The position numbers and the translations under genes were made by a program. Source: Mycobacteriales bacterium (GTDB taxonomy: Bacteria; Actinomycetota; Actinomycetes; JAFAQI01). Taken from it: a stretch of 64,000 nucleotides of DNA. This document shows, in pieces, positions 3,482 to 54,600 of this stretch. Numbering within the stretch: the stretch's first letter is position 1; every line of letters starts with the position of its first letter. The stretch is taken from NCBI GenBank assembly GCA_035501255.1, contig DATJWM010000008.1, positions 1,488-65,487 on the forward strand, written 5' to 3'. The notes beneath the pieces were generated by a model. That model did not search any database, was not told where the DNA came from, and worked only from the letters and a program-made list of their open reading frames with translations.

Positions 3482-4356
3482 CGCGCGGCGAGGAGCAGTC
3501 CGAGGGCGAGGAGGGCGGCGATCGCGAGCTCGAGCTTGCCGGTCCCCCCCAGGGCCGGGATCAAGGCTCGCCCGACGCCGCCGCCGCGCACCGCGCTCAC
3601 CGGCTCACGAGCGAGCGGGACGGCGAGGATCGCGAGCACCGGCCAGGCCGATCGAGCGGCGAGCGGTTCACCGACGACCGCGAGAACGATCCCGGCACCG
3701 ACGGCGAGGACGAACAGTTGGCGGGTTCGGGCCTCGCCGATCCGTACCGCCAGGGTGCGCTTGCCGGCGATCGCGTCGGTTGGCACGTCGCGCAGGTTGT
3801 TGACGACGAGGATCGCCACCGCGAGGACACCGGTCGCGACCGCACCCACCCACGCGGTCAACGGCATCGTGCGGTGCTGGACGTAGGAGGAGCCGAGCGT
3901 GGCGACCAGCCCGAAGAAGACGAAGACGAACACCTCACCCAGACCGCGAGAGGCGTACGGCCGCGGCCCGCCGCTGTAGCCGAGCAACGCGAGGAACATG
4001 CCGACGCCGACCACCAGCAACCACCAGGAGACGAGGGCCGCGAGCAGGAAACCGGCGAGGGCCGCGACCCCCATCGCGACGCCGATGGCGACGCGCATCG
4101 CGCGCGGCGTGACCAGGCCGCTCGCGACCGCTCGCCGCGGGCCGGCGCGCTGCACCGTATCGACCCCCCGTACGCCGTCGAAGTAGTCGTTGGCGAAGTT
4201 CACGGCGACCTGGACCGAAAGCGCGACCACCACGACGAGGGCGAACCTGCCCCACAGGATGCCCGTCGACGCGACCCCCGCCGCTGTGCCGACGATGACC
4301 GGGGCGAGCGATGCCGGCAGCGTGCGAGGGCGCGCCGCCTCGACCCACACGTTCAC
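3478..4356 (-). CDS. menA: 1,4-dihydroxy-2-naphthoate polyprenyltransferase (MenA, UbiA family)
   Basis: 292-aa polytopic membrane protein with NFANDYFDGVRGVD (UbiA Asp-rich motif). GTG start at 4356. Confidence 0.85.
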   Translation of the reverse strand: MNVWVEAARPRTLPASLAPVIVGTAAGVASTGILWGRFALVVVVALSVQVAVNFANDYFDGVRGVDTVQRAGPRRAVASGLVTPRAMRVAIGVAMGVAALAGFLLAALVSWWLLVVGVGMFLALLGYSGGPRPYASRGLGEVFVFVFFGLVATLGSSYVQHRTMPLTAWVGAVATGVLAVAILVVNNLRDVPTDAIAGKRTLAVRIGEARTRQLFVLAVGAGIVLAVVGEPLAARSAWPVLAILAVPLAREPVSAVRGGGVGRALIPALGGTGKLELAIAALLALGLLLAAR

Positions 4357-4430
4357 CCGGTCGTCTCCCTATCGTCTGCTTGGCCGTCCACTCGCCGTCC
4401 TCCCGCGACCGCCACTACCGTCGTACAACG

Positions 4431-5594
4431 ATGCCAGCCCAGCACACCGGCCGACTCCGCACCCTCGCCTATCCGCCGGGTGAGGAGTTCATCGCCGCCT
4501 TCGACGAGGCCTGGGATCGCGGTGACGCCGTGCTGCCGCTCGATCCGGCCGCCCCGGCAGCAGTGCGCGACCGGCTGCTTGCTGCCGTACGGCCGGACGA
4601 GCCGCTCGAGCCGGATGTCGCGCTGGTGATCGCGACCTCGGGCTCAACCGGAGAGCCCAAGGGAGTGCTCCTCAGCCGCGACGCGGTGCACGCATCGGGA
4701 GAGGCCGCCTACGCGCGGATCGGACGGGACCCGAACGATCGGTGGGTGTCCTGCCTGCCGTGGCAGCACATCGGTGGCCTCCAGGTGATGCTGCGGGCCC
4801 GGATGTTCGGGTTGCCGCTCACGATCCTCGACCGGTTCGACGTCGATCGCTTTGCCGCGGTTGACGCGACTCTCGCCTCCATCGTGCCGACCCAACTCGC
4901 GCGGCTGCTCGACGCGGGTGTCGACCTTTCCCGCTTCCGGGTGATCCTCGTCGGGGGTGCGGCCACCCCGGCCCCGTTGCTGGCGCGGGCCCTCGACGCC
5001 GGTGCCCCCATCGTCACGACGTACGGGATGAGCGAGACCTGCGGCGGGTGCGCGTACTCCGGCGTCCCGCTCGACGGGATCGACATCCGGCTCGGGCCCG
5101 GGGGGCGGATCGAGGTCCGTGGACCGACCGTCATGTCGGGTTACCGGCTGCGTCCCGATCTCAGCGAGCAGGCGTTGGTCGGTGGCTGGCTTCTGACCGC
5201 CGACATCGGCGCGTTCGGCCGAGACGGGCGACTCGACGTCCGCGGGCGAGTGGACGACGTCGTCATCAGCGGCGGTGAGAACGTCGTGACGACGCATGTC
5301 GCCGCTGTGCTGTCGGGTCATCCGGCGCTCGACGCGGTCGCGGTCACCGGCGTCGATGACCCCGAGTGGGGCCAGCGGGTGGTGGCGGTCGCCGTGGTGC
5401 GTCCGGGTCAGCCGACACCGACCCTGGCCGAGGTGCGCGAGTGGTGCGCGGACCGGCTGGATCCGCCGTCACGGCCGCGCGGCCTGGTGGTGGTGGCGAA
5501 TGTTCCGATGCTCGGCTCCGGGAAGCCGGACCGGCAAGCGATCCGCCGCCTGGCCGAGCGGGCGGACCGGCCCGGTCAGGCGGCCGAGGCCTAG
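4431..5594 (+). CDS. menE: o-Succinylbenzoate-CoA ligase (MenE, short actinobacterial form)
   Basis: AMP-binding motifs ATSGSTGEPKGV and TYGMSETCG. ATG at 4431 (MPAQHTGRL) is taken as the start within the 427-aa listed ORF. Divergent from menA. Confidence 0.8.
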   Translation: MPAQHTGRLRTLAYPPGEEFIAAFDEAWDRGDAVLPLDPAAPAAVRDRLLAAVRPDEPLEPDVALVIATSGSTGEPKGVLLSRDAVHASGEAAYARIGRDPNDRWVSCLPWQHIGGLQVMLRARMFGLPLTILDRFDVDRFAAVDATLASIVPTQLARLLDAGVDLSRFRVILVGGAATPAPLLARALDAGAPIVTTYGMSETCGGCAYSGVPLDGIDIRLGPGGRIEVRGPTVMSGYRLRPDLSEQALVGGWLLTADIGAFGRDGRLDVRGRVDDVVISGGENVVTTHVAAVLSGHPALDAVAVTGVDDPEWGQRVVAVAVVRPGQPTPTLAEVREWCADRLDPPSRPRGLVVVANVPMLGSGKPDRQAIRRLAERADRPGQAAEA

Positions 5595-5597
5595 CCC

Positions 5598-7292: not shown

Positions 7293-8462
7293 GTGGACTC
7301 CGACTTCGACCTGTTCACGTTGCCGGAGGAGCATCAGCTGCTCCGGGCGACGGTTCGCGCGGTCGCCGACGACAAGATCGCGCCGCGAGCGGCCGAGATC
7401 GACGAGACCGCGCAGTTCCCGTGGGACGTGCACGACGCCCTCGTGGCCGCCGACCTGCATGCCGTCCACATCCCGGAGGCCTACGACGGTGTGGGTGCCG
7501 ATGCGATCGCCTCGGCCATCGTCATCGAGGAGATCGCGCGTGCCTGTGCGGCCTCCTCGCTGATTCCGGCGGTCAACAAGCTCGGAACGATGGGCATGAT
7601 CCTGGCCGGCGCCGAGGAACTCAAGGCGACCTACCTCCCGCGGCTGGCCCGCGGTGAGGGAATGTTCAGTTACTGCCTGTCCGAGCCCGAGGCGGGAAGC
7701 GACGCGGCCGCGATGAAGACCCGCGCCATCCACGAGGGCGACGGGTGGGTCATCAACGGGGTGAAGCGCTGGATCACGGGCGGCGGGGTCTCGTCGTACT
7801 ACACCGTCATGGCGGTCACCGACCCCGACAAGGGGGCGAACGGGATTTCCGCGTTCGTCGTCGAGAAGGCGGACGCCGGGGTCAGCTTTGGCGCGCCGGA
7901 AAGCAAGCTCGGCATCAAGGGCTCGCCGACGACCGAGGTCTACTTCGACGACGTGCGGATCCCGGGCGACCGGATCATCGGCGCGCCGGGATCCGGCTTC
8001 AAGACTGCACTCGCCACCCTCGATCACACTCGCCTCACCATCGGTGCGCAGGCCTTGGGGATCGCGCAAGGCGCGGTCGACTACTGCACGCAGTACGTCC
8101 AGCAACGCCAGCAGTTCGGCCGTCCGATCGCGGAGTTTCAGGGAGTGTCGTTCCTGCTTGCCGACATGGCGATGAAGACCGAGGCGGCCAGGTCCCTGAT
8201 CTACACCGCCGCGGCCGCGTCGGAGCGGCTCGCCCCGAACCTGACGTTCCTGTCCGCGGCCGCCAAGTGCTTCGCCTCGGATGTGGCGATGGAGGTCACG
8301 ACCGACGGCGTACAGCTTCTCGGCGGCTACGGCTACACCAAGGACTATCCGCTGGAACGCATGATGCGGGACGCGAAGATCACCCAGATCTATGAAGGCA
8401 CCAACCAGATCCAGCGGCTGGTGATGGCGCGCAACCTGTTGAAGGCCAGTCCGCTGCGTTGA
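7293..8462 (+). CDS. Acyl-CoA dehydrogenase (FadE25-like)
   Basis: YCLSEPEAGSDAAAMKTRA..., GGYGYTKDYPLERMMRDAKITQIYEGTNQIQR. The start is set at the in-frame GTG 7293 (MDSDFDLFTLPEEH) because the listed ATG at 7209 would overlap the divergent ugd start. Start is uncertain. Confidence 0.8.
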   Translation: MDSDFDLFTLPEEHQLLRATVRAVADDKIAPRAAEIDETAQFPWDVHDALVAADLHAVHIPEAYDGVGADAIASAIVIEEIARACAASSLIPAVNKLGTMGMILAGAEELKATYLPRLARGEGMFSYCLSEPEAGSDAAAMKTRAIHEGDGWVINGVKRWITGGGVSSYYTVMAVTDPDKGANGISAFVVEKADAGVSFGAPESKLGIKGSPTTEVYFDDVRIPGDRIIGAPGSGFKTALATLDHTRLTIGAQALGIAQGAVDYCTQYVQQRQQFGRPIAEFQGVSFLLADMAMKTEAARSLIYTAAAASERLAPNLTFLSAAAKCFASDVAMEVTTDGVQLLGGYGYTKDYPLERMMRDAKITQIYEGTNQIQRLVMARNLLKASPLR

Positions 8463-9508
8463 CCGGGCCGGCCGCTGCGCCCTACGACGCGCTTCTCGTC
8501 CTGTCCTTCGGAGGTCCCGAGGGCCCGGACGACGTCCGACCGTTCCTGGACAACGTGACCCGCGGTCGCGCCGTCCCTGCGGAGCGGCTCGCTGCCGTGG
8601 CGGAGCACTATCTCGCCTTCGGCGGGGTGTCGCCGATCAACGCGGCCAATCGGGCGCTGGTCGCCGACGTGCGTGCTGAGCTGGGGCGACACGGGATCAC
8701 CCTCCCCGTCTTCTGGGGCAACCGGAACTGGCATCCGTTCGTGACCGACGCGATGCGGGAGATGGCCGGTGCCGGCGTCCGGCGAGCGCTCGTCTTCTGC
8801 ACCTCGGCGTACGCGTCGTACTCGTCTTGTCGGCAGTACCTCGAGGACCTCGAGCGGGCGCGACAGGAGGTGGGCGATTCCGCTCCGCGGGTCGAGAAGC
8901 TCCGGCACTACTTCGACCACCCGGGGTTCATCGCGCCACAGATCGACGCAGTGCGCGCGGCGCTGGACGGCCGCGGCGCCGAGCGCCGGGCTACCACCCG
9001 GTTGGTCTTCACCGCGCACTCGATCCCGCTCACGATGGCCACGGTGTCGGGTCGGGGGGGCGACACCTACGTTCGCCAGTTGCTCGCCGCGTCGGACCTC
9101 ATCGCCCGCGCGGCCGCGCCCGACCTCGGGTGGGAGCTTGCCTTCCAGAGCCGCAGCGGCCCTGGGTCGGTGCCCTGGTTGGAACCCGACATCGGCAATC
9201 GGCTGCGCGACCTGGTCGTCGACGGGGTTCGTGACGTGGTCGTCGTACCGGTCGGGTTCGTGAGCGACCATGTCGAGGTGGTCTGGGACCTCGACCACGA
9301 GGCGGCCGGAATCGCGGCCGAGCTCGACCTCGGGTTTGCCCGGACGCCGACGCCCGGCGGCGATCCGCGGTTCGTCGCGATGGTGCGCGAGCTCCTCGAC
9401 GAGCGCCTCGATCCGTCGGTCGAGGTGCGGGCGCTGTCGGATCTCGGTCCCAGTGGTGCCGACTGCTCGACAACCTGCTGCCTCCCGGATCGCCCAACTG
9501 TCAGCTAA
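8459..9508 (+). CDS. hemH: Ferrochelatase (coproporphyrin ferrochelatase type)
   Basis: DALLVLSFGGPEGPDDVRPFL and HSIP motifs. TTG start overlaps the fadE stop (TTGA). The stop codon TAA lies inside palindromic element copy 1. Confidence 0.85.
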   Translation: MTGPAAAPYDALLVLSFGGPEGPDDVRPFLDNVTRGRAVPAERLAAVAEHYLAFGGVSPINAANRALVADVRAELGRHGITLPVFWGNRNWHPFVTDAMREMAGAGVRRALVFCTSAYASYSSCRQYLEDLERARQEVGDSAPRVEKLRHYFDHPGFIAPQIDAVRAALDGRGAERRATTRLVFTAHSIPLTMATVSGRGGDTYVRQLLAASDLIARAAAPDLGWELAFQSRSGPGSVPWLEPDIGNRLRDLVVDGVRDVVVVPVGFVSDHVEVVWDLDHEAAGIAAELDLGFARTPTPGGDPRFVAMVRELLDERLDPSVEVRALSDLGPSGADCSTTCCLPDRPTVS

Positions 9509-9553
9509 CGGTCGTTCTGCCGGCGAAAACGCCCAGCTTCTGACGGTTGGGCG
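9491..9553. repeat. Palindromic ~60-bp element, copy 1 (arms CCAACTGTCAG / CTGACGGTTGG, 35-nt conserved core)
   Basis: Read directly: cgcCCAACTGTCAGctaacggtcgttctgccggcgaaaacgcccagcttCTGACGGTTGGgcg. It is near-identical in layout to the copies at 11513 and 25801. Confidence 0.7.
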
Positions 9554-9575
9554 AGGCGGGACTAGCCTGCGCTCC

Positions 9576-11561
9576 GTGGTCGAAGAAGGGGATCTGCTCT
9601 GGCGGCCCTCGGCGGACCGGGTCGCTCGCTCGCACCTGACGGCGTTCGCGGACTCCGTGGCCGAGGCAAGGGGGCGCACGTTTTCCTCCTACGCCGATCT
9701 CCACCGCTGGTCGGTGGACGAGCTCGAGGAATTCTGGGGCGATCTGACCGACTGGCTTGCGATCCGCTGGTCGACCGACCCCATCGAGGTGCTTGCCGAC
9801 CGCAAGATGCCAGGGGCGCGATGGTTCACCGAGGGCCGGCTGAACTATGCCGAGCACCTGCTGTATCCGCTCGTTGCCGTCGATGAGGACTCCGAGGCAG
9901 TGATCGCGGTCCGCGAGGACGACCGCCGAACGGCGCTGACCTGGCGGGAGCTGCGCGCCCAGGTCGGCTGCCTCCGGCACTGGATGCGCGCTCGCGGCGT
10001 CGGTCGCGGGGATCGGGTCGCCGCGTTGCTGCCCAACGGGCTCGAGGCGCTCGTCGCGGTGCTGGCGACCGCGTCGCTGGGCGCCATTTGGTCGAGCTGT
10101 TCACCCGACTTCGGTCCGACGGCGATCGCGGACCGGTTCGCCCAGATCGAGCCGAAGGTGCTGTTCACCGTCGACGGATACTGCTACGGCGGCGCGAGCT
10201 ATGACATCAGGTCCACGGTCGAGGAGCTTCGTCGCTCCCTTCCGAGTCTCGAGCACACCGTCCTCGTCGGCTACCTCGATGACGATGCGATCCTCGACGC
10301 GAGCGTGCGGTGGCCCGAGGCGCTCGCGGACAGCGCTCCGCCGGCGTTTGAACCGATGGGTTTCGCCGAGCCGCTGTGGGTGCTGTTCTCCTCGGGCACG
10401 ACCGGCTTGCCGAAGCCGATCCTGCACGGTCACGGGACGATGCTGGTCGAACACGCCAAGCAGCTGCGGCTCCATCTCGACCTGGGCGCGGACGACCGGT
10501 TCTTCTGGTTCTCGACGACCGGGTGGATGATGTGGAACCTCCTGATCTCCGCCCTTGCGGTCGGCTCGAGCATCGTCCTGTACGACGGCAACCCCGCCTA
10601 CCCGGACGCCTCCCGGATCTGGCGGCTTGCCGAGGCCGAGCGGATCACGTCCCTGGGACTCGGGGCGCCGTTCATTCAGGCGTGTGCAAAAGCCGGACTG
10701 CGGCCCCGCGACACCCTCGACCTCAGCGCCTTGCGGTCGGTCGGCTCCACCGGGGCGCCGTTGCCGCCCGAGGGGTTCGCCTGGGTGTACGACGCGGTCG
10801 GGCCTGATCTGATGCTGTCCTCGCTCTCCGGTGGCACCGATGTCTGCAGCGCGTTTGTCGGCGGAGCGCCCTGGCTTGCGGTCCGCGCCGGCGTGATCCC
10901 TGCTCGGATGCTGGGTTGTGCCGTCGAGGCCTTTGACGCGCGGGGCCGGCCGGTCCTCGACGAGGTCGGTGAGCTCGTGATCACGGCCCCGATGCCGTCG
11001 ATGCCGGTCGGGTTCTGGAACGACCCGGACGGGTCCCGGTTGCGGGAGGCGTACTTCGAGAACTACCCCGGGGTGTGGCGGCACGGCGACTGGGTGAAGT
11101 TCGCCTCCGACGGGTCATGCGTGATCTACGGGCGCAGCGACTCGACCCTCAACCGCGGCGGCGTCCGGATGGGGACGAGCGAGTTCTACCGCGTAGTGGA
11201 GGAGCTTCCCGAGGTCGAGGACTCGATCGTCATCGACACCTCGGCGGCCGGGGTCGAAGGCAGGCTGCTGTTGTTCGTCGTCCTGACTCCGGGCGCATCG
11301 CTCAACGACGTGACGATGGCGTTGCGCAAGCGGATTCGCTCGCAACTCTCGCCGCGGCACGTCCCGGACCGGGTGATCGCGATCGAGGCGGTGCCCAGGA
11401 CGCTCAATGGGAAGAAGTGCGAGGTGCCGGTCAAGCGGGTGCTGGCCGGCGTACCGCTCGCCGAAGCGGTGTCCGCGGGCTCGCTGAAGGACCCGACCAC
11501 CATGACCCCGTTCGTCCAACTGTCAGCAACCGGGCATTCCGGCGGCCACAACCCCCGATAA
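9576..11561 (+). CDS. acsA: Acetoacetyl-CoA synthetase (acetoacetate-CoA ligase)
   Basis: N-terminus LWRPSADRVARSHLTAFAD is typical of acetoacetyl-CoA synthetases. Also carries an AMP-binding SSGTTGLPK motif. GTG 9576 was chosen (661 aa). The listed 763-aa ORF is an upstream over-extension through hemH. Confidence 0.85.
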   Translation: MVEEGDLLWRPSADRVARSHLTAFADSVAEARGRTFSSYADLHRWSVDELEEFWGDLTDWLAIRWSTDPIEVLADRKMPGARWFTEGRLNYAEHLLYPLVAVDEDSEAVIAVREDDRRTALTWRELRAQVGCLRHWMRARGVGRGDRVAALLPNGLEALVAVLATASLGAIWSSCSPDFGPTAIADRFAQIEPKVLFTVDGYCYGGASYDIRSTVEELRRSLPSLEHTVLVGYLDDDAILDASVRWPEALADSAPPAFEPMGFAEPLWVLFSSGTTGLPKPILHGHGTMLVEHAKQLRLHLDLGADDRFFWFSTTGWMMWNLLISALAVGSSIVLYDGNPAYPDASRIWRLAEAERITSLGLGAPFIQACAKAGLRPRDTLDLSALRSVGSTGAPLPPEGFAWVYDAVGPDLMLSSLSGGTDVCSAFVGGAPWLAVRAGVIPARMLGCAVEAFDARGRPVLDEVGELVITAPMPSMPVGFWNDPDGSRLREAYFENYPGVWRHGDWVKFASDGSCVIYGRSDSTLNRGGVRMGTSEFYRVVEELPEVEDSIVIDTSAAGVEGRLLLFVVLTPGASLNDVTMALRKRIRSQLSPRHVPDRVIAIEAVPRTLNGKKCEVPVKRVLAGVPLAEAVSAGSLKDPTTMTPFVQLSATGHSGGHNPR

Positions 11562-11576
11562 TTGACAGTTTGGCGG
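11513..11576. repeat. Palindromic ~60-bp element, copy 2 (arms CCAACTGTCAG / TTGACAGTTTGG)
   Basis: cgtCCAACTGTCAGcaaccgggcattccggcggccacaacccccgataaTTGACAGTTTGGcgg. It overlaps the last ~15 codons and the TAA stop of acsA. Confidence 0.7.
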
Positions 11577-11578
11577 GA

Positions 11579-12220
11579 TCAGTCGAGGCGCGGGTATCCG
11601 GGGACAGTGACGCCGAGGGTGTGGCTGACCCGTTCGGCCTCGGCGTGCGCGGAAAGGCGGGCCGGATCCGGGTGCCGCACCAGGACCGCCGATCCGCTGA
11701 CCGCGAGCGGTCCGATGAGTGCGTAGCCGAGTCCTCCCGGTACGTCGTACCCGATCGTCGTGAGCACCCGCGCGCCGTGCGGGAGGTCCGTCGCGGTCGC
11801 GGCCAGGACATCGTCGCCGGTGGGAGCGGTCGGCACGAACTGGTCGGGTTGGGTGGCGACGAGCCGGCTGAAGTCCGCCCCCATCGGCTCGAAGGTCAGG
11901 ACGTGACAGTCGCCGCCCGCGTCTTCCTCGCCGGCGAAGGAGAGGTCTCCGTCGGCGGAGAACGAGACGATGCCCCCCGCCGCCCAAGTTGCCAGGATGA
12001 TGATCGCGGTCTGCCAGTGCAACGGAAGCCGAACGCTGACGACGATGCCTTCCTCGACGCCATGTTCCTCGAGGTAGTTGGCCGTTTTCGCGACCCAGTT
12101 CGCGGTCGTGGCCACCGAGAGCTCGACCCGCTCGCCGGTCGAGTCGTCGTAGAACGTCAGGAACGGCCGGGCGCCGTCCGCTCGCAACTCGGCGTTCAGC
12201 AGATCGGTGGGTGTGGTCAC
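11579..12220 (-). CDS. Conserved actinobacterial hypothetical protein (degenerate adenylation-fold-like; TIGR03089-like from memory)
   Basis: 213-aa ORF with GTG start. No catalytic motifs recognised. Convergent with acsA. Confidence 0.5.
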   Translation of the reverse strand: MTTPTDLLNAELRADGARPFLTFYDDSTGERVELSVATTANWVAKTANYLEEHGVEEGIVVSVRLPLHWQTAIIILATWAAGGIVSFSADGDLSFAGEEDAGGDCHVLTFEPMGADFSRLVATQPDQFVPTAPTGDDVLAATATDLPHGARVLTTIGYDVPGGLGYALIGPLAVSGSAVLVRHPDPARLSAHAEAERVSHTLGVTVPGYPRLD

Positions 12221-25530: not shown

Positions 25531-25794
25531 ATGAAGACCACTGCCCGCCACCAGATCCCCGAGCAGCGCACCGCCTCGCCCTCGTCGCTGACCCGCCCCG
25601 GAGCGCGCAGTGGCGCCGAGTGCCCGAGCTGCGGGAGTGAGCGTCTGACGTTGCTGGTGATGACGCTCACCGACGGCTCGCCCGTGAGCTTCTCCTCGTG
25701 TCACAACTGCGAGCACCGGGTCTGGACCGGCGAGGCCGGTCGACTGGAGTTCTCCGACGTTCTGAGCCGCGCCACCAAGCGCAAGGCCTCCTGA
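25531..25794 (+). CDS. Small zinc-ribbon hypothetical protein (87 aa)
   Basis: CPSCGSE...CHNCEHRVW (paired CxxC). ATG lies 11 nt after GGAG. Immediately followed by palindromic element copy 3. Confidence 0.4.
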   Translation: MKTTARHQIPEQRTASPSSLTRPGARSGAECPSCGSERLTLLVMTLTDGSPVSFSSCHNCEHRVWTGEAGRLEFSDVLSRATKRKAS

Positions 25795-25800
25795 TCGCTT

Positions 25801-25863
25801 CGCCCACCTGTCACTTAACGGGCGTCTGCCGTCGCAGAATGACCGGTAACTGACAGTTGGACG
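25801..25863. repeat. Palindromic ~60-bp element, copy 3 (arms CCACCTGTCAC / CTGACAGTTGG)
   Basis: cgcCCACCTGTCACttaacgggcgtctgccgtcgcagaatgaccggtaaCTGACAGTTGGacg. It directly abuts the phosphomannomutase start. Confidence 0.7.
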
Positions 25864-25901
25864 AAACCTGGCCTTCTCCGGGCTGGGCTAGCGTCGGCCA
25901 C

Positions 25902-27254
25902 GTGAGCACGCTCGACGCGATCTTCAAGGCCTATGACATCCGGGGGATCGTCCCTGACGAGCTCGACGAGTCGATCGCCCGAGCGGTCGGGGGTGCTTTT
26001 GTCGCGCACCTCGGCGCGAGCCGGGTCGTCACCGGCTACGACATGCGCGACTCCTCGCCCGGTCTCGCTGCCGCCTTTGCCGCCGGCGCGAGCGAGCAGG
26101 GCGCCGATGTGGTCGAAATCGGCCTCGCCTCGACCGACCTGCTCTACTTCGCCTCGGGCTCGCTCGATGTGCCCGGGGCGATGTTCACCGCCTCGCACAA
26201 TCCGGCCCGATACAACGGGATCAAGTTGTGTCGGGCGGGCGCTGCTCCGGTCGGCGAGGACAGCGGTCTCGCGGACATCCGGTCGCTCGTGGAGGCCGGC
26301 GTTCCTGCCTCCGCCGCTTCGCGCGGAACGGTGTCCCAGCGCTCGATGCTCGCGGGATATGCGGCGTACCTCAAGGGGCTCGTGCCGGGCCTCGAGCAGA
26401 TCCGGCCGCTGGCGGTGGTCGTCGACGCGGGTAACGGCATGGGCGGCCTGACCGTGCCGGAGGTCTTCGCCGGTCTGCCCCTGGAGGTCACCGCGCTCTA
26501 CTTCGAGCTCGACGGGAGCTTCCCGCACCACGAGGCGAACCCGCTCGACCCAGCGAACATGCGCGACCTGCAGGCGGCTGTGCGCAGCACTGGCGCCGAC
26601 CTCGGACTGGCCTTCGACGGCGATGCCGACCGGTGCTTCGTGGTCGACGAACGGGCCGCGATCGTCCCCCCGTCGGCGCTCACGGCACTGATCGCCGACC
26701 GCGAACTGAGCCGCGAGCCGGGGGCGAGCATCATCCACAACCTCATCACCTCCCACGCCGTGCCTGAGATCGTCCGGGAGCGGGGCGGCGTCCCGATCCG
26801 GACCCGCGTCGGGCATTCCTTCATCAAGGCAACGATGGCCGAGACCGGGGCGGTCTTCGGCGGCGAGCATTCCGGCCACTTCTACTTCCGCGACTTCTGG
26901 CGGGCGGACTCGGGGATGCTTGCGGCACTCCATGTGCTTGCGGCCTTGGGAACGCAGCCCGGCCCGCTCTCCGAGCTGCTCGCGACCTACGTTCGGTACG
27001 CCACCTCCGGTGAGATCAACAGCGCGGTCGCCGACCCCGGGGCCGCGACGGCCGCCGTGCGGCACGCGTTCGAGGGCCGGCCCGGCGTCGTGATCGATGA
27101 TCTCGACGGGATGACCGTTGACCTCGCCGACGGGTCGTGGTTCAACCTGCGTCCTTCCAATACCGAGCCGCTCCTGCGGCTCAACGCCGAGGCGCCCAGC
27201 GCGGCGAAAGTCGACGCCCTGACCGACGAGGTCCTCGCGCTCGTCCGCGGCTGA
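25902..27254 (+). CDS. manB: Phosphomannomutase/phosphoglucomutase
   Basis: LDAIFKAYDIRG N-terminus and active-site TASHNP. GTG 25902 chosen. The listed TTG 25857 lies inside the palindromic element. Confidence 0.85.
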   Translation: MSTLDAIFKAYDIRGIVPDELDESIARAVGGAFVAHLGASRVVTGYDMRDSSPGLAAAFAAGASEQGADVVEIGLASTDLLYFASGSLDVPGAMFTASHNPARYNGIKLCRAGAAPVGEDSGLADIRSLVEAGVPASAASRGTVSQRSMLAGYAAYLKGLVPGLEQIRPLAVVVDAGNGMGGLTVPEVFAGLPLEVTALYFELDGSFPHHEANPLDPANMRDLQAAVRSTGADLGLAFDGDADRCFVVDERAAIVPPSALTALIADRELSREPGASIIHNLITSHAVPEIVRERGGVPIRTRVGHSFIKATMAETGAVFGGEHSGHFYFRDFWRADSGMLAALHVLAALGTQPGPLSELLATYVRYATSGEINSAVADPGAATAAVRHAFEGRPGVVIDDLDGMTVDLADGSWFNLRPSNTEPLLRLNAEAPSAAKVDALTDEVLALVRG

Positions 27255-51147: not shown

Positions 51148-51495
51148 TCAGCCCTCCGCTTGTCGCATGGCTTCTTTCACATAGTGGGCGAAGCGCTGCT
51201 GCGCGGCCTGCTTGCTGACACCGAGGGCCGTACCGATGGTCGCCCACGGCACCTCGTGCGCCCGACACTCGCCCACGATCGAGAGCAGCGCCCAGTCGAC
51301 CCGTTCGGCAATCGCGGCCAGATGTCCGAGCGCGGCGAGGAGCGCGGGTGGCTCGTCGGACACCGGATCCCCGGACTCCGCGACCGCGGTTCGCAGGCTG
51401 CGGATGACCGCCGCCAGTGCCCGGTCGGGGATCCGCTCACCGCCCAGCCAGCCGAGGTCGGCGTAGGAGGGGTACGGCCACGGGGAGTCTGTCAT
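51148..51495 (-). CDS. Small HTH DNA-binding protein (115 aa), divergent from the giant repeat-protein gene
   Basis: C-terminal HTH VPWATIGTALGVSKQAAQQRFAHYV. ATG 51495. Confidence 0.55.
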   Translation of the reverse strand: MTDSPWPYPSYADLGWLGGERIPDRALAAVIRSLRTAVAESGDPVSDEPPALLAALGHLAAIAERVDWALLSIVGECRAHEVPWATIGTALGVSKQAAQQRFAHYVKEAMRQAEG

Positions 51496-51661: not shown

Positions 51662-54600
51662 ATGTTCGCGCTGATGGGGAGGTATTGGTTTCGGCGGGTA
51701 CGCGGCAACGAGTGGGGCCGCGTGGCTGCGGCTTGCCTCGCCGCTGCGCTGTTCACCGCCGGCGGGTTGACCAACGTCGACGGATCGGCATCCGCGGCAC
51801 CGGGCGATGCTTCGATTTCCAGCGCCCCGCCGGCTCGGACCGCGACCGATGGATCGACCACGACGACCCTCGACTGGACGATCTCCACCCCCGCCGTCGA
51901 GACCCAGTGCGAGCTCACCCGGGACGGTAATCCGATCGCGGCCTACCCGGCCGCGGACTGTTCGAGCGGCGATGTCAGCTTCGACGTCACGAGCTGGGGT
52001 GCCTACACCCTGACCGTGACGCCGACGGTGGGCAACGGCGCGACCTCATCCGTCAGTGTCGTACCGACCGCGGTCGAGCTCGACTCGGCGCCGACGAGTC
52101 CGGGCAACGACCGCACCCCGACGTGGACGTTCTCCGCCCTCGCCGCTGCGGACAGCGTCGAGTGCACCCTCACCGGTCCGGCCGGCTCGGTCGTCGACGA
52201 CCAGACGTCGTGCACCAGTCCATACACCGCACCCGACCTGTCCGGGGTGGCACCTGCCGACGGAGGCCCCGGCACCTACCACCTCGCCGTCGTCCAGACC
52301 GGCGACGGGCAGGCGTCGGACCCGCTGACGTCCGCCTACGCGTGGCAGCCCCCGGCGCCGACCGTGACCGCCGACGCGTCGCTGGGATACTCCCGCAGCC
52401 CGACGTTCACCGTGGGCAACCTCGACGGGGCCGCGACCACAACCTGCACGCTCGATCCACCCTCGGGTGGACCGGCGGTGTCGGTCGCCGCCTGTGGAGC
52501 GTCGACGAAACTCGATCTGACCGGCGGCGACGACGGTACGTACACGGTCCACGTCCGCCAGAGCGTCAACGGCGTCACCAGCGACCCCGCGAGCGCGACC
52601 TACACGTTGGACACCCATATCCCCAGTACGCCGACCGTGTCCGCGTCGTCGAGTTTCGGCACCGGCCCGCACGCGACCTTCATGGTCGGCAACATCGACC
52701 CGGACGCGCAGGCGGAGTGCACCGTGACCGGCCCGTCGGCGGTCCCCAACTCGGCCGTCACGTGCGCGAGCCCGCAGACGGCGGTCGACCTGTCCGGACT
52801 GGCCGCAGGAACCTACACGCTGTCCGTGGTCGAACGCGACACGGCCGGCCGGGACGGCCCGGCGGCTACGGCGACCTACGAATACCTGCCGACCGCGCCC
52901 CCCGCACCCGAGGTCACCCCCGCGACCCGGACCGACAACGTCCGGTCGCCGCAGCTGTCGGTCACCGACGCGGAGAACGCGACCCTGACCTACAGCTGCA
53001 CCGTCACCGGCCCGTCTCCCGTCGCCAACCCGGATTGCTCGAGTGGCTCCCCGACACTGGACCTGTCCGGGGCCGCAGACGGCACCTACACACTCCATGT
53101 CACCGCCACCGACAGCGCCGGTCAGACGAGCAGCGCGGGTACGGCGACCTACACCCTCGACACCTTCACTCCCGACCCGACCGTGACGCTCACCTCACCC
53201 GCGACGTCGCCGGGAAGCGTGACGGCGGTCACCTTCTTGATCGGCGACTCCGAATCCGGGGACACCTTGACCTGCACCTGGTCGGGTCCGGCGACCAACA
53301 CCTCAGGTCCATGCCCGCCCGGCGGCGGCTTTGTCGCGAGCGGCGGTTCGGGTGTCTACACGTTGACCGTGACCGCGAAGGACCAGGTCGGCAACACCAC
53401 CGATTCCGGCGGGAACCCCGCCCGCGTGACCGCCACCTATGTCCTCGACAACAGCACCCCCGCGCCGGTCGTCACGCTGACCAGCGCGTCGAGCCCCAAC
53501 TCACCGCCCGGAGCGGACGCGTCGAGCAGCCAAACTGCGTCGTACTCGATCGTCGACAGCGAGGCCACCTCCGGTCCTGACACGTTCGACTGCGTGTGGA
53601 CCGGCCCCGGGTCGACCACCGTCCACACTCCGGGTTGCAGCAGTGGTGCCGCGTTCACCGCTTCCGGCGGCGAGGGGTATTACCACCTCACGGTCACGGC
53701 GACCGACACGCTCGGCAACTCCGCCTCCACGTCGAAGACCTACCTGTTCGACGCGACGACTGGGGCGCCGGTGGTCTCCCTCAACGGACCGTGGACCGAA
53801 CCGCTCACGACGACGACACCCTCGTTCTCCTTCTCCGACCCGGCGGAGGTGCTCGATGGTCCCGACACCTACACCTGCGACCTGGTCGGTCCCGACCACG
53901 TGGATGCCGGCTTCTCGCCGTGCGCGAGTGGGCCGATCACCACGGCCGGCCATGGCGGTGACGGCGCATACACGCTGACCGTCGCGGCGATGGACGCGCT
54001 CGGCAACGTGGACACCTCCGGTGGAGTGCTCGCGACCACCAGCTACCCGTTCACCGTGGACACGACGACGCCGGACCCGACCGTCACCGTCAACACCGCG
54101 TTGTCATCGCACGGCACGGCGAACGTCGTGACTCCGTCGATCTCGATCTCGGACAGCGAGGCCGGCGACACCCTCACCTGCACGTGGACCGACCCGCACG
54201 GCACAACGGTCTTCTCGGGTGCGTGCCCGCAGCCGTGGACGATCGGCACCGATGGCATCGACGGCACGTACGTGTTGACCGTCGATGCGACGGACCAGGC
54301 CGGCAACACCACCGACCCGTCCGGACACCCTGCCAGCACGACCATCAGCTACACCTACGACGGCTCAACACCGAAGCCGGTCCTCAGCCTGACCACTCCG
54401 GTCTCCCCGCACGGGGTCGGGACGTCGAAGTCGCCGACCTTCTCGATCTCGGACTCGGAGACCACTGATCTGCCCGAGACGTTGACCTGCGGTTGGGTCG
54501 ATCCGCACGGCGTCGTCACGACCGCGCCCTGCCCGTCGGGCGGCACGTTCTCGGCGGGCGCCGGGGACGGCACGTACACGCTGATGGTGGACGCCTCCGA

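Follow-up and report, generated by a model that had tools for sequence, protein, structure and literature searches.

Gene-end palindromes in an actinobacterial genome: a lineage-restricted family of dispersed repeats inserted at the 3' ends of genes

The stretch of DNA analysed here, referred to as the window, comprises 64,000 nucleotides of a Mycobacteriales bacterium (GenBank assembly GCA_035501255.1, contig DATJWM010000008.1, forward-strand positions 1,488 to 65,487) and contains three copies of a short palindromic repeat, all three located at the 3' ends of genes on the plus strand. An earlier reading of the letters alone (the sequence-only reading) had reported three related elements, and they are indeed found where it had placed them. 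The best cores of the copies, together with the open reading frames (ORFs) and junctions that surround them, are listed below in window positions, the scores being those of a covariance model of the repeat family.

8459..9508, plus strand: hemH, ferrochelatase (PF00762, 5e-81), with its TAA stop (9506-9508) inside copy 1
9490-9554, strand undefined: copy 1, core, between hemH and AACS; the inverted repeat reaches 9483-9561; 67.4 bits
9563..9578, plus strand: ancestral junction after copy 1, reading …GAC TAG (in frame with hemH), CCTGCGCTCC, GTG start of AACS
9576..11561, plus strand: AACS, acetoacetyl-CoA synthetase, with its stop (11559-11561) inside copy 2
11512-11576, strand undefined: copy 2, core, within the final AACS codons; 58.7 bits
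11579..12220, minus strand: convergent AMP-binding-like ORF, conserved in relatives, its stop lying 2 bp from the end of copy 2
25531..25794, plus strand: 87-aa CxxC…CxxC zinc-ribbon ORF, with its stop (25792-25794) 5 bp before copy 3
25800-25864, strand undefined: copy 3, core, between the zinc-ribbon ORF and manB; 57.5 bits
25889..25904, plus strand: ancestral junction after copy 3, reading …GGC TAG, CGTCGGCCAC, GTG start of manB
25902..27254, plus strand: manB, phosphomannomutase, downstream of copy 3

When the window was searched, with filters off, with the covariance model built from the wider family, the three copies scored 47.6-67.4 bits and the next-best match 14.2 bits; the window therefore holds three copies and no more, far beyond chance. 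Their consensus arms are TCGYCCAACTGTCAG and CTGACAGTTGGRCGA, and the interior between the 11-mers measures exactly 35 bp in all three. The sequence-only reading had described 11-bp arms spaced by 57-58 bp, of which the consensus arms and a span of 57 bp in every copy stand, but only three of the six arms are perfect and the remaining ones carry one or two mismatches. Allowing up to one mismatch, the 11-mer was found four times in the window against 0.71 expected. The interior had been taken to be conserved, which was not confirmed, the window copies being only 49-60% identical to each other in this part. Copy 1 has arms of 22 nt (9483-9504 and 9540-9561) that are 86% complementary, and its predicted fold reaches -44.2 kcal/mol (z = -4.8 relative to shuffled sequence). 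Copy 2 is the most decayed, with 18 of 29 Watson-Crick pairs, and its plus strand folds no better than shuffled sequence (z = -1.24). In general the window copies keep 18-21 of these 29 pairs, compared with 22-27 in the other members of the family.

The search for the wider family used an arm pattern fitting copies 1 and 2 as well as the opposite strand of copy 3. Among 185,579 species-representative genomes (one per species) it gave six chance-like matches, none of which belongs to the family, whereas among metagenome contigs it gave about 25 contigs, all of them from JGI Ga0335083/85, with 66-72% G+C and a span of exactly 57 bp. In total the family comprises 23 distinct loci, namely the three window copies and twenty loci in JGI Ga0335083/85; one further copy detected with the covariance model (L063, 3208-3276) is included in this number. 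As the extra copies were ascertained via the arm pattern, the apparent conservation of the arms is inflated. The density of copies is three per 64 kb in the window, and at least 23 distinct loci are spread across metagenome contigs of the same population. When about 67 kb from syntenic relatives were scanned with the family model no copy came up, and a literature search on the arm sequence returned unrelated primers only. Identity to the consensus is 75-91% for every copy but falls to 62-77% between copies, and this star-like relation is the mark of copies that derive from a master sequence and then decayed independently.

The window corresponds to the 66-kb contig k141_3526852 of ENA ERZ27256576, and its copies were found unchanged in two further independent assemblies (ENA ERZ27256499 and JGI Ga0335085), in contigs 99.6-99.8% identical to the window. 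They are therefore real and fixed in the population, and not an artefact of assembly. The JGI samples include this very species, as two loci (L013 and L070) are 99.7% identical to the window. With 70% G+C and a typically actinobacterial synteny (whiB, DUF3499-manB, mtrAB-lpqB and F420 genes), the window has its nearest protein relatives in metagenome-assembled genomes of 'Mycobacteriales bacterium' or in Jatrophihabitans, at only about 75-80% identity.

The arm pattern with a span of 63 bp also matches a conserved sequence, GGTGGAGGTGTTCCAACTGTCAGGAGCCTGCTCGC, in human-gut contigs (L010, L019, L020, L024, L026, L040-L042, L051, L054, L058 and L061), which is unrelated to the family. The only matches in viral contigs (L072-L082) have the same 63-bp span and appear to be an unrelated gut-phage coding sequence.

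The consensus of the family is one near-perfect long palindrome, cgCCCAACTGTCAG-TTATC-GGGCGTTTT-(7 variable nt)-AAAACGCCC-GATAA-CTGACAGTTGGGcg, which is often extended outward by CCCC…GGGG or CTGAT…ATCAG. Terminal inverted repeats are present, with arms of 15-22 nt (TCGCCCAACTGTCAG). Some members (L062, L047 and L014) are nearly perfect palindromes, and the window copies are degenerate versions of this consensus. The unit is made of two halves of about 29 nt, inverted with respect to each other and flanking a hypervariable centre of 7-9 nt. Each half, CGCCC-AACTG-T-CAGTT-ATC-GGGCG-TTTT, is itself an imperfect palindrome with a trailing run of 3-5 T. Two inverted halves that resemble repetitive extragenic palindromic (REP) elements form a REP doublet, and therefore the layout is REPIN-like. 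The hairpin of a half-unit is weak (mean -7 kcal/mol, up to -15 in some variants) and the long hairpin of intact members reaches -39 to -68 kcal/mol.

In the 23-copy family the interior pairs across the centre (GGGCGTTTT with AAAACGCCC). The small inner hairpin ACGG-N7-CCGN that had been proposed is confined to the decayed window copies, and in place of a conserved two-stem RNA the family folds as one long hairpin or as two REP-like half hairpins, with no significant compensation. Conservation comes in blocks: hardly any change is seen in the outer arm or in GGGCGTTTT/AAAACGCCC, the 5 nt that separate these vary and are frequently unpaired, and the nine central columns are near random. The mean entropy is about 0.6 bit in those stem columns that the search pattern does not fix, against about 1.5 bit in the central nine columns. 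Both strands score about equally with the family model, and because the element is symmetric its orientation is undefined; the statement that all copies share one orientation is consequently meaningless, even if their placement at the ends of plus-strand genes is correct in the three cases. By direct reading, the consensus closes two of the three reading frames on both strands with TGA and TAA stops.

None of the three window sites is occupied in syntenic relatives, whose gene order is the same and whose proteins are 74-81% identical. The distances at the three junctions are as follows.

hemH / AACS junction: genes 1-10 bp apart in relatives L066, L067 and L068; 67 bp apart in the window
AACS / convergent ORF junction: genes overlapping by 4 bp in L067 and by 18 bp in L068; copy 2 between them in the window
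zinc-ribbon ORF / manB junction: genes 9 bp apart in L071; 107 bp apart in the window

In L067 and L068 the AACS stop is overlapped by the convergent ORF and therefore there is no room for an element. At the copy 1 junction, L066, L067 and L068 all read TAG, 10 nt, GTG, and at the copy 3 junction L071 reads AGC TAG CGTCGCAGC GTG. Since the sites are empty in the relatives and the ancestral stop, spacer and start are kept after copies 1 and 3, the copies are insertions. Copy 3 belongs to a 97-bp insertion (25792-25888) relative to L071. The alignment of these junctions with those of the relatives therefore places the insertion points within the final codons of the upstream genes, which received their new stops from the elements. 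The final residues of hemH (…DRPTVS*) are encoded by copy 1, and the C-termini of its relatives diverge after a Cys-Cys pair. In AACS a 14-residue tail, QLSATGHSGGHNPR*, is read from copy 2, and homologues of this protein end 3-12 residues past the PF(V/L) motif, mostly 5-8.

Both co-directional junctions, and those of all the relatives, share the arrangement stop TAG, NNT, 6-7 nt and GTG start (window 9563-9578 and 25889-25904; L066 ~9997-10013, L067 ~165-181, L068 ~9988-10003, L071 ~2934-2948). This creates a TANNNT (-10-like) box that overlaps the stop codon and has the spacing that a leaderless AACS or manB transcript would need. Insertions 1 and 3 sit just upstream of this putative box and leave it intact, and the CTGACG of copy 1 is placed exactly 17 nt upstream of TAGCCT. 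The promoter scan, which uses an E. coli-type consensus, did not score the TANNNT box.

The AACS 3' end of relative L066 (74% AACS identity) carries, at ~11975-12055, an unrelated palindromic stretch of about 80-100 bp (…GCCATCGCATGGCTGATCAGCCATGCGATG…). It has no second copy in 22 kb, and a repeat search of L066 gave noise only. This suggests that convergent junctions recurrently gain different hairpin elements.

The placement seen in the window extends to the whole family. A long ORF with high G+C at third codon positions runs into 20 of the 23 copies, its stop falling anywhere from 38 bp before the start of the core to 51 bp inside it, and ten copies, which lie between convergent genes, have such ORFs on both sides. 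No copy among the 23 lies in a divergent promoter region. Measured from the start of the core, the stop offsets fall into clusters at -2 to -12, just outside the core, and at +15/+16 and +47/+51, which correspond to the TAA/TGA triplets of the element itself. The neighbours are core genes, and include pknB (PASTA domain)/GATase, holA/rpsT, folE, nifU, Fe-S assembly genes, SpoU methylases, kdpDE, hemH and manB. No transposase or integrase was found beside any copy; about 20 short flanking ORFs were checked and none is a transposase.

Evidence that the element is under selection as an RNA was not obtained. Among 21 copies, 85.9% of the cells are paired, compared with 84.8 ± 0.6% in shuffles, and the covariation score of the long hairpin was reached by 105 of 500 shuffles; the compensatory variation that had been noticed in the three copies is accordingly not above control. 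The only pair changed on both sides in more than two copies is that of columns 25/45, from GC to CG, in four copies. Sense-strand G-U and A-C mismatches number 14 and 8, a difference that is not significant and shows no strand bias. The lack of compensation and strand bias, as well as the decayed hairpin of copy 2, fit neutral decay after insertion. Promoter and terminator scans gave no canonical site at any copy: no T-run follows the long hairpin, and the half hairpin with its TTTT is weak and below the threshold of the scan. The whole window had no Rfam match at gathering score, and permissive searches with the three copies and a consensus-like copy returned no bacterial family, only generic sub-threshold matches to microRNA-precursor hairpins. 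The earlier impression that the element corresponds to no known riboswitch or small RNA was thus confirmed, as was the REP-like layout, or one like that of miniature inverted-repeat transposable elements (MITEs), given the at least 23 dispersed and star-like loci, their position at gene 3' ends and the empty sites in syntenic relatives.

In architecture and distribution, the closest known system is that of the REP/REPIN elements of Proteobacteria, which are mobilised by REP-associated tyrosine transposases (RAYTs) (Bertels & Rainey 2011, PMC3116915; Di Nocera et al. 2013, PMC3733652). Both are scattered extragenic palindromes that lie 3' of genes and in the gaps between convergent or co-directional ones, and both consist of an inverted doublet that gives a long hairpin, in which the arms are conserved, the spacer is more variable and the halves are imperfect palindromes. 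The absence of target-site duplications and the restriction of each family to a lineage are also shared. However, the family consensus contains neither the GTAG/CGTC tag (PMC3733652) nor the complement of either tetranucleotide, the half-unit hairpin of the present family is weak, and the host is an actinobacterium, whereas REP families have been described mainly in Proteobacteria; a text search of the REP review (PMC3733652) found no mention of Actinobacteria.

In host and placement, the closest known system is TRIT, the 'Tuberculosis Rho-independent terminator' motif, with 147 palindromic and mostly bidirectional copies in M. tuberculosis, centred about 8 nt inside stop codons and reported in Mycobacterium only (Gardner et al. 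2011, PMC3152330). Its role as a terminator is doubtful according to Term-seq data (bioRxiv 10.1101/2022.06.01.494293). Like the present family, TRIT is a bidirectional palindrome conserved in sequence, which lies at or overlaps stop codons and has many dispersed copies in the same bacterial order, but it has been treated as a terminator and not shown to be an insertion. The two sequences appear to differ, TRIT having been compared by its description; the arm pattern is absent from a genome set that should include mycobacteria.

Bacterial MITEs at gene ends contribute stop codons or C-terminal residues, as is the case of Correia elements, Rickettsia palindromic elements and enterobacterial RU/ERIC. 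This is also covered in PMC2759123. The present repeats share with them the short, non-coding nature, the terminal inverted repeats, the star-like divergence and the ability to extend or terminate ORFs, the tails of hemH and AACS being element-encoded. They differ in being at the small extreme (65-80 bp) and almost wholly made of inverted repeats, and in having no target-site duplication.

Taking these comparisons together, the family is new in sequence but of a familiar kind (REP/REPIN, MITE or mycobacterial TRIT-like), and is not a new type of regulator. We consider it probable that it is a mobile REPIN/MITE-like repeat with at most incidental effects on RNA, and in the best reading the three window sequences are copies, old and in part decayed, of a palindromic repeat of about 65-80 bp that is non-autonomous and specific to the lineage of this uncultured soil actinobacterium. 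From a master sequence the copies spread to new sites, where they were inserted into the stop regions or final codons of genes. Mobilisation would have occurred in trans, by an enzyme (RAYT/HUH-like or some other nuclease) that recognises the conserved arms, probably in the form of a DNA hairpin. The copies may persist at gene ends because insertions there would be nearly harmless, as they bring their own stop codons and leave the downstream start region intact, and convergent gene junctions would likewise be dispensable space for insertion. As a by-product, an intact hairpin transcribed from either side could impede 3' exonucleases or RNA polymerase, and it might plausibly uncouple genes that were formerly adjacent. 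An effect of the modelled hairpin on RNA 3' ends is plausible, and a role at mRNA 3' ends, as the sequence-only reading had put forward, is possible.

Several observations weigh against a mobile repeat. No mobilising gene was found in the window contig or in the short metagenome contigs, and the copy density given above is known only from partial sequence. The nearest relatives with empty sites are distant, at the 74-81% protein identity already mentioned, and there is no presence/absence polymorphism among the strains that are 99.6-99.8% identical, so that recent mobility is not shown. Neither a consistent target-site duplication, which had been proposed as a feature to look for, nor a conserved target was seen in the flanks of 22 copies. 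These flanks continue the inverted repeat (CCCC…GGGG) rather than forming direct repeats. Finally, the stems are better conserved than the centre and the length is strictly constant, neither of which is predicted by pure neutral decay; this implies either some constraint on the stems or a palindrome with a mutable centre.

Weak direct similarities were considered as target-site duplications (GGCCTCC / GGCCTTCTCC at copy 3 and CCTGC…CTCC at copy 1) and were not used, being inconsistent. A gene flanked by two copies in L063 was evaluated as the mobiliser and rejected, as it encodes a glyoxalase-like protein. No full-length insertion sequence with the same ends was seen in the loci examined, and no dedicated search for one was run.

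A variant family was observed in one contig (L043, Ga0136617_10121096), where the outer arm of about 24 nt, CCCCGGATTCCGCCAACTGTCAG, is kept with another inner stem and a 51-bp span. At positions 923-2061 of this locus, two inverted variant copies (63 nt, 92% complementary) bracket a gene for a 324-aa protein with weak matches to AbiEi_4 and to a restriction-endonuclease-like family (MTES_1575), which has no homologue in the other loci examined. The unit is located between a converging P450 gene and another gene, and the TGA stops of both abut CCCCGG…CCGCCAAC. The bracketed gene may be a lead to the mobilising gene, or a coincidence.

The main alternative is that selection acts on the element primarily as an RNA or transcription signal, that is, a bidirectional terminator or a protective 3'-end hairpin such as has been proposed for TRIT, in which transcripts arriving from either side would be stopped or protected by the half on that side (a GC stem with UUUU after it). 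The strict location at 3' ends, often between convergent genes, the high stability of the long hairpins, the conserved run of 3-5 T after the stem of each half and the far better conservation of the stems relative to the centre are all in line with such a role, and TRIT is similarly placed around stop codons (PMC3152330). Nevertheless no canonical terminator was detected, the half hairpins have a mean of just -7 kcal/mol, neither covariation nor a G-U strand bias is apparent and the plus strand of copy 2 folds no better than random sequence. Moreover, relatives in which the genes are adjacent or overlapping have empty sites, which means that these loci do not need the element, and in M. tuberculosis the termini mapped by Term-seq overlap each set of predicted terminators, TRIT included, by only 2-4% (bioRxiv 10.1101/2022.06.01.494293). 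We regard a selected signal as rather unlikely, while it is the alternative to which we give most weight.

A different possibility is that the repeat is a DNA site for a protein (a nucleoid-associated protein, a topoisomerase or a recombinase), which would recognise two palindromic 11-bp boxes, AACTGTCAGTT, placed 42 bp or about four helical turns apart, together with the GGGCGTTTT boxes. E. coli REP elements and bacterial interspersed mosaic elements (BIMEs) are known to bind gyrase and integration host factor (IHF). It is the sequence blocks rather than the base pairing that are conserved, and the L043 variant keeps its outer arms of about 24 nt despite a different inner stem. Against this, no candidate protein is known, the palindrome greatly exceeds the length required for a binding site, the symmetry by itself produces the 42-bp spacing, and the copies decay and are absent from the relatives; the proposal is in our view improbable.

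The copies also recall integron attC sites (59-base elements), in a cluster without integrase. Their length is similar (about 59-65 bp), they are imperfect palindromes located 3' of ORFs, their ends GCCCAAC…GTTGGGC fit the R''/R' consensus RYYYAAC/GTTRRRY, and copies 1 and 2, which are 2 kb apart, bracket the single ORF of AACS. But many members are palindromes with almost no imperfection and lack the extrahelical bases and arm asymmetry that attC requires, and neither a co-oriented array nor an integrase was found in the window or in the loci examined. The synteny of hemH, AACS and the convergent ORF is kept in relatives that lack the element, and therefore AACS is no cassette; other copies lie between convergent core genes (holA/rpsT and pknB/GATase). 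On symmetry, synteny and gene context the attC reading was rejected, being largely refuted and extremely unlikely.

Lastly, hairpins are abundant in genomes of high G+C content (178 inverted repeats are listed in the 64-kb window), and the similarity between the copies might have been due to chance or to assembly. The family model, however, sets the three copies apart by more than 30 bits, and identical copies in three independent assemblies plus twenty further loci have already refuted this explanation, whose probability is practically nil.

The mobile REPIN/MITE-like repeat that we favour adds a palindromic family of novel sequence to a phylum where elements of the REP/REPIN type are barely documented, and the clean junctions before and after insertion show that such elements are insertions into gene ends. 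It also bears on the nature of TRIT, which could be an evolved terminator or mobile DNA. From a practical point of view, these repeats mislead gene callers, as seen from the element-encoded C-terminal tails of hemH and AACS, and in automated scans they can mimic structured RNAs or attC sites. The finding alone opens no new mechanism. More speculatively, Actinobacteria might harbour REPIN-like mobile hairpins of their own, moved by an enzyme other than a GTAG-type RAYT, and TRIT-like 'terminators' might be such mobile elements. We give this wider idea only a small chance; were it true, the element would spread itself as a cassette, bringing both stop codons and a hairpin with it and rewiring the coupling of operons (hemH with AACS, and the zinc-ribbon ORF with manB).

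Two of the neighbouring ORFs deserve mention. The convergent ORF at 11579-12220 (minus strand) encodes 213 aa with only the N-terminal ~70 residues of an AMP-binding domain. It is found at the same position in all three relatives (201-222 aa), and is therefore a real short gene and not the result of a recent truncation. The 87-aa ORF lies between DUF3499 and manB, has no match in Pfam, and has an 85-aa orthologue at 2679-2936 of L071, a relative with 80% manB identity; from its sequence it is predicted to be a small conserved zinc-ribbon-like protein.

The window has other long imperfect inverted repeats (5533-5596, 51340-51459 and 52951-52999), which score at most 14 bits with the family model and are unrelated to it. 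The one at 5533-5596 sits at the 3' end of a plus-strand gene (4299-5594).

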